Shown here one piece after another: positions 26,677 through 27,969 of a stretch of 32,000 nucleotides of DNA; positions within the stretch are counted from its first letter, which is position 1, and each line of letters starts with the position of its first letter. Origin of the DNA: Candidatus Hermodarchaeota archaeon (lineage in GTDB: Archaea; Asgardarchaeota; Heimdallarchaeia; Hodarchaeales; Hodarchaeaceae). Where the stretch lies: assembly GCA_048886185.1 (NCBI GenBank), contig JBHLKY010000002.1:120001-152000 (forward strand), read 5' to 3'. The notes under the pieces are model-generated. The model had not been told where the DNA came from, did not search any database, and saw only the letters and a program-made list of their open reading frames with translations. Position numbers and translations under genes: made by a program.

Positions 26677-26817
26677 TTAATGCCAGTTCCATCTCATTTG
26701 TGCGAGTTCTTCAGGTGAAATTTTTGGTTCCCGACCGAATTTTTTTTCCAAGTAACTCAGTTCTTCAGTTGACGATTTTTTTGAGCTATTTTTTTGAGGA
26801 GTCTTAGTTGATGACAT
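26677..26817 (-). CDS. Unannotated 46-aa micro-ORF
   Basis: MSSTKTPQKNSSKKSSTEELSYLEKKFGREPKISPEELAQMRWNWH*. No RBS; an AT-rich TATA-like sequence lies about 25 nt upstream. Confidence 0.4.
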   Translation of the reverse strand: MSSTKTPQKNSSKKSSTEELSYLEKKFGREPKISPEELAQMRWNWH

Positions 26818-26939
26818 ACAATCTTGATTAATGGATGAACCATATAAATACAAAAGAGAGAGAGTTATTCGAAAATGAGAACTTTACAATGTATGAAAAT
26901 TTTTAAGGAGTCTATTCATACAAATAACTGAGGATGATA

Positions 26940-27074
26940 ATGAAATTTGAGAAAAAACGTTTTTCTCCACCAGTAAAAAAACATAAGATCAATAAGGAAG
27001 TTGTCGAACAAATAAAAGACACTAAACGTCGCATGAAAGAGAAAATTGTTCATTCTAATTCAAAGGAAGAATAA
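26940..27074 (+). CDS. Unannotated 44-aa basic micro-protein
   Basis: GAGGATGA RBS-like site. MKFEKKRFSPPVKKHKINKEVVEQIKDTKRRMKEKIVHSNSKEE* has 15 K/R. TTTTTAAG at 26900-26907 preceded by GAAAA is a candidate promoter. Confidence 0.6.
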   Translation: MKFEKKRFSPPVKKHKINKEVVEQIKDTKRRMKEKIVHSNSKEE

Positions 27075-27111
27075 CACCTGAAAAAATCATATATTAAGGA
27101 GAGGTACCCAT

Positions 27112-27228
27112 ATGCCCCGAAAAGGAAAGGGAGTCAGACGTATTCTTCGTGAAGAAAAACGATTTAGAGAGAAAAAAAAGCAGGGAGATAAATCCTGGCG
27201 ATTTAAATCAAAGAAGGAAAAAGATTAA
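27112..27228 (+). CDS. Unannotated 38-aa highly basic micro-protein
   Basis: AAGGAGAGGT RBS. MPRKGKGVRRILREEKRFREKKKQGDKSWRFKSKKEKD* has 18 K/R out of 38. Confidence 0.7.
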   Translation: MPRKGKGVRRILREEKRFREKKKQGDKSWRFKSKKEKD

Positions 27229-27261
27229 CTCTCTTCATTCAAACAATTTTTGTGAGTGAGA

Positions 27262-27969
27262 ATGCGTTTAGATGAATGGCTTTTTCAGAAACAGGGACTT
27301 TTACCTTCCAAGTCGAAAGCTATTCAATTTATCCGTGAGATTGGTGTAGAAATTAATGGTAAGTTAGTACAAAAACCTGGATATCGAGTAAAGGATACTG
27401 ATCTGTTAGATATTGAGAGTTCTTCTTTAGAAAATTACAAGAAACCTTTTGGTTATCGTAAATTCAAGTTCTTAACTTCAAAAACTTCAATTCCCTTTAG
27501 CATCAAAGATAAGTGCTTAGATATTGGCGCCAGTGCTGGTGGATTCTCTCTTTATATGTTAGAACAAGGAGTAGAATCTGTGTTAGCGATTGAAATCTCT
27601 TCTCGTTTCCAGCCCTTTTTAGAAGAGATAAGAAAGCAATATCCTGATAAATTTTCATATTGGATAGAGGATTTTTTTAAATTAACTCTTAACAGATTTC
27701 CTCATCTTTTTAATCTTGTCACAGCGGATTTAACTTTGGATCCTTATTTTCTAGTAAGAAATCTAGATTTGTTTGTCTCAATCTTAGAGCCATCAACAAT
27801 TCAAGCACGACTTCTATTAACAATTAAAACAGGAAATATCACCTCTACAAATAATATAATGAATCAAGTTGAGGAATTAATCAACCAGATATCTTCAGAT
27901 TTGACTTACCAGTGGTTAGAATCGCTACCCGATAAACAAGAACTTTTTCTACTTCTTTTAAAGCTTTAA
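27262..27969 (+). CDS. TlyA-like S4-domain plus FtsJ-type rRNA 2'-O-methyltransferase
   Basis: MRLDEWL...SKSKA...VEINGKLVQKPG (S4), CLDIGASAGGFS (SAM binding), and candidate K-D-K-E residues (YRK, ADL, TIK, QEL). ATG at 27262 is preferred over GTG at 27256. Confidence 0.85.
   Translation: MRLDEWLFQKQGLLPSKSKAIQFIREIGVEINGKLVQKPGYRVKDTDLLDIESSSLENYKKPFGYRKFKFLTSKTSIPFSIKDKCLDIGASAGGFSLYMLEQGVESVLAIEISSRFQPFLEEIRKQYPDKFSYWIEDFFKLTLNRFPHLFNLVTADLTLDPYFLVRNLDLFVSILEPSTIQARLLLTIKTGNITSTNNIMNQVEELINQISSDLTYQWLESLPDKQELFLLLLKL

Follow-up and report, generated by a model that had tools for sequence, protein, structure and literature searches.

Two very short and strongly basic open reading frames, ORF1 and ORF2, lie directly upstream of a gene for an RNA methyltransferase-like protein in a Hodarchaeales genome (G000), raising the questions of whether they are genuine genes, whether they belong to the methyltransferase, and what kind of partner their products would bind. 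The window, i.e., the whole stretch of DNA analyzed, comprises 32,000 nt (positions 120,001 to 152,000 of contig JBHLKY010000002.1, assembly GCA_048886185.1), and its features are given below in window positions.

about 26677–26817, minus strand: ORF0, a third conserved micro-protein gene of 46 aa, divergent from ORF1
26895–26907, plus strand: promoter candidate of ORF1 (putative function), a purine-rich BRE-like stretch and a TATA-like box (gaaaa-tttttaag), gaaaatttttaag
26930–26933, plus strand: GAGG, a Shine-Dalgarno (SD)-like or initiator-region motif, 7–10 nt before the ORF1 ATG
26940–27074, plus strand: ORF1 (P0001), a 44-aa basic micro-protein, ATG at 26940 and TAA at 27072–27074 (open frame re-read)
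27097–27106, plus strand: SD-like AAGGAGAGGT, 5 nt before the ORF2 ATG
27112–27228, plus strand: ORF2 (P0002), a 38-aa very basic micro-protein, ATG at 27112 and TAA at 27226–27228 (open frame re-read)
27262–27969, plus strand: TlyA-like S4 and FtsJ-type methyltransferase gene (P0003; Pfam S4, FtsJ)

ORF1 contains 15 K/R residues (net charge +8, pI 10.1), and ORF2 contains 18 K/R and 6 D/E residues (net charge +12, pI 11.1). The coordinates, lengths and residue counts that the first-pass annotation had given for both ORFs were exact on recount, and its placement of the TlyA-like gene was reproduced, with the ATG at 27262 lying 33 nt past the ORF2 stop and an alternative GTG at 27256. Its term "unannotated" holds for the gene track it worked from, but not for the databases, as several NCBI and JGI records list homologues as "hypothetical protein". 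No Rfam families or tRNAs were found in the ORF1/ORF2 region, and a non-coding RNA or tRNA at the locus was therefore rejected.

Coding status of ORF1 and ORF2

Six-frame searches covered 40 relatives, and the genus set comprised 22 genomes, namely G000 and 21 sister genomes. Intact ORF1 was found in 15 of the 21 sisters (16/22 with G000); a profile search returned the same 15, and ORF1 was not found in six genus genomes even by this search. Intact ORF2 was found in 19 of the 21 sisters (20/22 with G000), and the conservation in relatives on which the first-pass proposal depended is hence present for both ORFs. Orthologue starts were kept as ATG, except for TTG in two ORF2 cases, and the orthologues shared a conserved core with diverging C-terminal tails. 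Their identities of 55–88% exclude that they are assembly duplicates of a single population.

Pooled pN/pS (Nei-Gojobori) was 0.36 for ORF1 (15 sequences) and 0.33 for ORF2 (19 sequences), and closer orthologue pairs gave dN/dS values of 0.05–0.7, mostly ≤ 0.3. Heterozygosity at codon positions 1/2/3 was 0.25/0.21/0.45 in ORF1 and 0.27/0.20/0.48 in ORF2, the third position being about twice as variable as the first two in both. Long antisense ORFs were also present (26912–27053, minus strand), in which the most variable site would fall at codon position 1; this opposite variability pattern indicates that the plus strand is the coding strand. In a large protein collection, ORF1 and ORF2 formed 47 and 58 clusters at 90% identity, respectively, with lengths of 36–94 aa. 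Across the 58 ORF2 clusters, ten positions within the first 27 residues were invariant (P2, R3, K6, G7, V8, E15, E20, K21, K23, and K27), giving the core motif MPRKGKGV.RI..EE.R..EK.KQ..K.

At 35% GC, the AT-rich genome would readily yield Lys-rich ORFs by chance, and ORF2 occupies the position expected of a leader ORF; both points would suit an explanation in which the two ORFs are non-functional, either as chance ORFs in an AT-rich spacer or as upstream ORFs whose translation alone matters for the TlyA-like gene. However, amino-acid purifying selection extends over about 20 species and about 50 metagenomic clusters per ORF, and both ORFs persist apart from the TlyA-like gene, making this explanation very improbable. 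On the comparative evidence, ORF1 and ORF2 are genuine protein-coding genes under purifying selection.

Gene order, expression signals and the methyltransferase gene

The species were grouped by shared gene arrangement and sequence similarity, with the following arrangements.

ORF0, then on the opposite strand ORF1, ORF2 and the TlyA-like gene: G000, G003, G008, G012, and one metagenome contig
ORF0, then on the opposite strand ORF1 and ORF2, without the TlyA-like gene: G009, G010, G014, G017
ORF1 and ORF2 only: G015
ORF0, then ORF2 and the TlyA-like gene, ORF1 not in the block: G002, G004, G013, G018, G020
ORF0, then the TlyA-like gene, ORF2 on another contig: G005, G019
ORF0, then the TlyA-like gene, ORF2 not found: G021
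ORF2 in unrelated contexts: G001, G006, G011, G016

Among the five genomes with ORF1 outside the block, G004, G013, G018, and G020 have it elsewhere, immediately before a nitroreductase-like gene, and in G002 it was not found. By gene order, ORF0 (on the opposite strand), ORF1, ORF2, and the TlyA-like gene form a small cassette that has been rearranged among species. The block is flanked by TldD/PmbA and beta-carbonic anhydrase genes, and besides these the neighbours included nitroreductase-like, AMP-binding, radical SAM, and LRR genes.

ORF0 was found in 20 of the 21 sister genomes with 1–3 copies each, and at least 13 genomes have it next to the ORF2/TlyA-like locus, among them those in which ORF2 lies elsewhere (G005, G019) or was not found (G021). 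Its N-terminal part is variable and rich in S, T, K, and P, and its C-terminus (YLEKKFGREPKIS..EL..MRWNWH) is conserved across orthologues as YLE[KR]K[YF]G[KR]EP.I...E....RWNWH-stop; searches of Pfam and the PDB gave no relative of ORF0. A TATA-like TTTATAT on the minus strand (26843–26849) lies about 26–32 nt from the ORF0 ATG, suggesting a leaderless ORF0 mRNA. Judged by these comparisons, ORF0 is a third real, lineage-restricted micro-protein gene.

Further small features were observed in this neighbourhood and elsewhere in the genome. A motif, GAAAATGA, at 26871–26878, about 60–70 nt before the ORF1 ATG and between the divergent ORF0 and ORF1 promoters, was kept in the genomes with the ORF0/ORF1 arrangement (G000, G003, G008, G009, G010, G012, G014, and G017) and may be a regulator binding site. 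Upstream of ORF2 in G013, G020, G004, and G002, at the place that ORF1 takes in the G000 window, a conserved 70-aa ORF was detected (L007:2094-2306, L019:3066-3278, L023:1870-2082, and L025:641-853, respectively), with two hydrophobic membrane-helix-like segments and the motif M[GS]RK[DE]L.KFLLVGL...APGT[MV]LKILRQR. Moreover, a scan for very basic mini-ORFs found two near-identical Lys-rich ORFs of 20–21 aa, MADKEKKTKTKKPRAKKTKKK and MAEKEKKAKTKKPRAKKTKK, on G000:C10 at about 191605 (plus strand) and about 8988 (reverse complement).

For ORF1, the BRE/TATA element proposed by the first-pass annotation is present, and this predicted promoter is well kept among relatives, with 15 of the 16 orthologous loci carrying YTTWWAW 38–42 nt ahead of the ATG, preceded by a purine-rich stretch. 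In addition, TTGAGG(A/G) before ORF1 was kept in most orthologues. Transcription of ORF1 is predicted to start about 10 nt before the ATG and thus close to this TTGAGG, so that the motif may act either as an SD element or as an initiator. Among the ORF2 orthologues, no TATA-like box recurred at a constant distance, and GAGG occurred at about -11 in 9 of 20 of them, often as TAGAGGTG. The RBS-like site claimed before each ORF was likewise recovered. These SD calls were made against the general archaeal anti-SD consensus, as the searched assemblies yielded no 16S rRNA: the archaeal SSU rRNA model RF01959 matched 14/14 control genomes and gave no match in G000 or in the single-contig sister assemblies G010 and G015. 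The rRNA operons of these three may be unassembled or interrupted.

Where ORF1 and ORF2 are adjacent, their spacers measure 37–104 nt, and co-transcription is the simplest reading for an ORF2 located behind ORF1. In G000, ORF2 is most likely expressed from the ORF1 transcript, and probable co-transcription extends to the TlyA-like gene, the 33-nt gap between this gene and ORF2 being too short to hold a promoter. An attenuator role for the T5 run at 27249–27253, behind ORF2, was considered and rejected, as the run is not conserved in orthologues.

The product of the TlyA-like gene, P0003, matched Pfam S4 (E 8.6e-11) and passed the FtsJ cut-off narrowly (26.5 bits against 24.1). Its matches to NCBIfam TlyA TIGR00478 (56.6 bits, cut-off 185.8) and NF049952 (55.6 bits, cut-off 250) were confined to the N-terminal half, as was the alignment with the closest solved relatives (TlyA 3hp7 and 7s0s). 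By these matches, P0003 is TlyA-like in architecture only. The gene was found in 12 of the 22 genus genomes (G000 included) and in one sister-family genome, and it was not found in G010, a single-contig assembly of 96% completeness. As an observation on one further copy, the G005 gene (G005:C18:1206-1898, minus strand) contains one in-frame TGA, which could reflect a pseudogene, a sequencing error, or recoding.

How closely ORF2 is tied to this enzyme was assessed across the 20 genomes that carry it. ORF2 lies directly upstream of, or overlaps, the TlyA-like gene in nine of them, and in G002, G004, G013, and G018 its stop overlaps the start of that gene by 14–23 nt, which suggests translational coupling. 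In the other 11, ORF2 is unlinked or the TlyA-like gene was not found, the latter applying to nine genomes that keep ORF2. ORF1, in turn, is unlinked to ORF2 in seven genomes. The operon with an rRNA methylase that the first-pass annotation had described, and the synteny by which it proposed to check it, are thus partly supported, by the 33-nt gap in G000 and the adjacency in nine of the 20 genomes, and not by the remaining 11 or by the ORF1 genes lying apart; on gene order, the operon fits G000 and some relatives rather than the whole ORF2 family. Furthermore, pN/pS over the first 28 codons of ORF2 was similar whether a TlyA-like gene was detected (0.16, ten genomes) or not (0.20, nine genomes). 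This equal constraint where the enzyme was not found argues that ORF2 functions independently of the methyltransferase and is not an obligate subunit.

These results also bear on the possibility that ORF2 serves the TlyA-like enzyme as a dedicated adaptor or accessory subunit, made stoichiometrically through translational coupling and aiding rRNA binding in a Trm112-like manner. The immediate upstream position in nine of 20 genomes, the stop/start overlaps, and the G000 gap free of any promoter-like motif would all suit such an adaptor. Nevertheless, it is considered improbable, given the nine ORF2 genomes (G010 among them) in which no enzyme was found and the constraint on ORF2 is the same, the location of ORF2 and the TlyA-like gene on different contigs in G005 and G019, and the converse cases of G021 and the sister-family genome G022, which have the enzyme and no detectable ORF2.

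Taxonomic range, predicted structure and possible partners

Searches for relatives beyond the close lineage returned nothing credible. An ORF1 profile run against 83 genomes of the class and an ORF2 profile run against 301 genomes across the phylum found nothing credible beyond their own genus and family, and HMMER hmmsearch of 1.84 billion representative proteins with the ORF2 profile recovered five clusters, all of its own 40–47 aa family. A metagenome scan added three further loci, and no copies of ORF1 or ORF2 were found on viral contigs. The named sources of homologues were nearly all Candidatus Hodarchaeales, Hodarchaeota, and Heimdallarchaeota MAGs, including Ca. Hodarchaeum mangrovi, with single records labelled Promethearchaeota or Thorarchaeota. 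Neither ORF matched a family in Pfam (E ≤ 10) or NCBIfam, no relatives beyond the two families were found in the ESM Atlas, and no fused or longer forms of ORF1 were found. Against all PDB chains, the ORF1 profile found nothing and the ORF2 profile only V-ATPase subunit G at a non-significant E of 0.45. A Foldseek search with the ORF2 model gave no match, a single-helix fold making such a search uninformative. A paralogous relationship between ORF1 and ORF2 was rejected (hhalign probability 0.2%). Taken together, the sequence searches show ORF1 and ORF2 to be two unrelated orphan families, both restricted to a single family-level clade of Hodarchaeales (Heimdallarchaeia, Asgard) and both already in the databases, where every named homologue is a "hypothetical protein".

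AlphaFold2 models built from the family alignments predict that each peptide consists of a basic N-terminal tail and a single long alpha-helix. In ORF1, disordered basic residues 1–18 precede a helix at 19–43 (pLDDT 75, helix core > 90), and in ORF2 one helix spans residues 6–37 (pLDDT 78) after the invariant PRKGKG. Both helices carry a narrow hydrophobic stripe, formed by I17, V21, I25, M32, and I36 in ORF1 and by V8, I11, L12, F18, and W29 in ORF2, and their hydrophobic moments were not significantly higher than those of shuffled sequence (p 0.06 and 0.15). In silico digestion of ORF2 yielded zero tryptic peptides of at least 6 aa, so ordinary tryptic proteomics would miss it, and its absence from existing tryptic proteomes is uninformative.

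The invariance of a 27-residue segment points to a specific macromolecular contact, and the charges of +12 and +8 to a polyanionic partner. Each peptide may act alone, docking the invariant basic and hydrophobic face of its helix onto such a partner, most probably a structured RNA of the ribosome or pre-ribosome, in which case it would be a lineage-specific ribosome-associated protein or factor. Binding to rRNA, the ribosome, or the pre-ribosome, with biogenesis and hibernation as variants, is therefore tentatively preferred as the best single reading. It is ranked first because an S4-domain, FtsJ-type RNA methyltransferase is the one functional neighbour that recurs, and because recent archaeal ribosome structures continue to identify former "hypothetical proteins" as ribosomal proteins of single lineages, aS36 and aS21 being examples (PMC13004131). 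Several findings count against it: ORF1 and ORF2 lie outside ribosomal-protein or translation gene clusters and their other neighbours are unrelated; a one-family distribution is narrow for a ribosomal component, and ORF1 was not found in six genomes of the genus; and the amphipathicity of the helices does not exceed that of shuffled sequence significantly. The narrower proposal that ORF2, and possibly ORF1 and ORF0, are unrecognized ribosomal proteins specific to Hodarchaeales, or peptides acting in ribosome biogenesis or hibernation, is conceivable and rather doubtful. If true, it would mean that the ribosome of an archaeal lineage often placed closest to eukaryotes gained micro-protein components of its own, and that ORF2 was originally recruited alongside an S4-domain rRNA 2'-O-methyltransferase.

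Basic single helices are equally able to bind DNA or acidic proteins, and archaea have many small basic DNA-binding proteins. ORF1 and ORF2 could accordingly be DNA- or chromatin-binding proteins or transcription co-regulators, with the basic helix placed in a DNA groove or on a transcription factor and tuning near or distant genes; their composition and single basic helix fit DNA as well as RNA, and ORF1 with its promoter precedes different genes, i.e., ORF2 in one group and the nitroreductase-like gene in G004, G013, G018, and G020. A comparable case is a small basic protein of Halobacterium that is co-transcribed with a regulator and involved in regulating bop transcription (PMC3184054). 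However, Pfam, NCBIfam, and the PDB gave no match to a recognizable DNA-binding fold or family, and the one functional neighbour that recurs beside ORF2 encodes an RNA-modifying enzyme rather than a DNA-related product, leaving a DNA-directed role unlikely relative to ribosome or RNA binding.

Alternatively, the helices might regulate a protein partner in a coiled-coil-like manner, for example by mimicking the N-terminal helix of V/A-ATPase subunit G, or the peptides might act as membrane-active cationic peptides. The weak profile match aligns ORF2 residues 5–38 with residues 5–38 of V-ATPase subunit G, and the hydrophobic stripes of both peptides have roughly heptad spacing. Nonetheless, no signal peptide or hydrophobic segment was found, the hydrophobic moments are not above those of shuffled sequence, and no link to ATPase genes was seen, so that this class of explanation appears quite improbable. 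The likeness to the subunit G N-terminus itself was rejected, being non-significant and driven by E/K/R composition. Ordered by probability, ribosome or RNA binding comes first, followed by a role in DNA binding or transcription, an adaptor of the methyltransferase, other protein partners, and finally the absence of function.

As constrained, lineage-confined micro-proteins, ORF1 and ORF2 are concrete and cheap targets for ribosome cryo-EM, top-down proteomics, and binding assays. Ribosome binding would make them lineage-specific additions to an Asgard ribosome, and even without it they stand as new orphan families whose 27-residue core is unusually invariant.

Comparison with known systems

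The first-pass annotation had drawn an analogy with eL41/eS32 (PF05162), a protein of about 25 aa composed almost wholly of Arg and Lys. ORF1 and ORF2 share with it the character of a tiny Lys/Arg-rich single-helix peptide often missed by annotation, but they are longer, contain 6–7 acidic residues, and have no PF05162 match (E ≤ 10). Moreover, an eL41-like 22-aa ORF, MRNKWKKKRLRRRKRKERRRTR, which begins MRNKWKKKRLRR, was identified in G000 itself (G000:C8:92737-92805), and a canonical 25-aa eL41 was found in the sister-family genome G023 (L072:1498-1575, minus strand), downstream of a thioredoxin-like gene. A six-frame genome scan with PF05162 was insensitive, matching 1 of 14 control genomes and missing the G000 eL41-like copy. 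The analogy consequently fails as homology, and the idea that ORF2 is a diverged or replacement eL41 was rejected, given the separate eL41-like ORF in G000 and the missing PF05162 match. A likeness of ORF2 residues 6–15 to the basic patch of the histone H4 tail, noticed by eye, was likewise rejected, with no histone found in the PDB or Pfam even at E ≤ 10.

With respect to the neighbouring enzyme, TlyA is a 16S/23S rRNA cytidine-2'-O-methyltransferase, and P0003 resembles it in domain order, with an FtsJ-type SAM-binding motif (DIGASAGGF) behind an S4 RNA-binding domain, but differs in aligning over the N-terminal half only, in scoring far below the NCBIfam cut-offs, and in its patchy distribution (12/22). 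Trm112 is a small protein that supports partner methyltransferases; ORF2 is likewise small and encoded together with an RNA methyltransferase, perhaps with co-translation of the two, but it has neither a zinc knuckle nor the Trm112 fold and persists where the enzyme was not found.

Hibernation factors such as Lso2/CCDC124, Stm1/SERBP1, archaeal Hib/AHA, and Sri/Dri are comparable in being basic and partly disordered or helical and in threading rRNA channels, the mode considered here for ORF1 and ORF2. No Pfam domain of the factors compared (HPF/RaiA-CBS Hib/AHA, Lso2/CCDC124, Stm1/SERBP1, TMA7, and SERF) was found in either ORF at E ≤ 10, nor did the PDB and protein-collection profile searches show similarity to such factors, and the hibernation factors known from archaea to date are larger and contain several domains (10.1101/2025.10.11.676729; PMC13004131).

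The nearest parallels in kind are small archaeal ribosomal proteins of restricted range. The proteins aL45–aL47 of Sulfolobales are lineage-restricted small ribosomal proteins. Similarly, aS36 (DUF5350) and aS21 of Methanosarcina are small, lineage-restricted ribosomal proteins, formerly "hypothetical proteins", that were found in cryo-EM maps (PMC13004131). ORF1 and ORF2 bear no sequence relationship to any of these in Pfam (DUF5350 included) or the PDB, their profiles showed no similarity to solved ribosome chains in the PDB, and their range is far narrower, being limited to one family. In common with them, ORF1 and ORF2 are small, basic, restricted in range, and have long been "hypothetical", and their predicted helices would suit an rRNA surface. 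Thus, it is in kind (size, charge, shape, and restricted range), rather than by family membership, that ORF1 and ORF2 resemble small ribosomal proteins.
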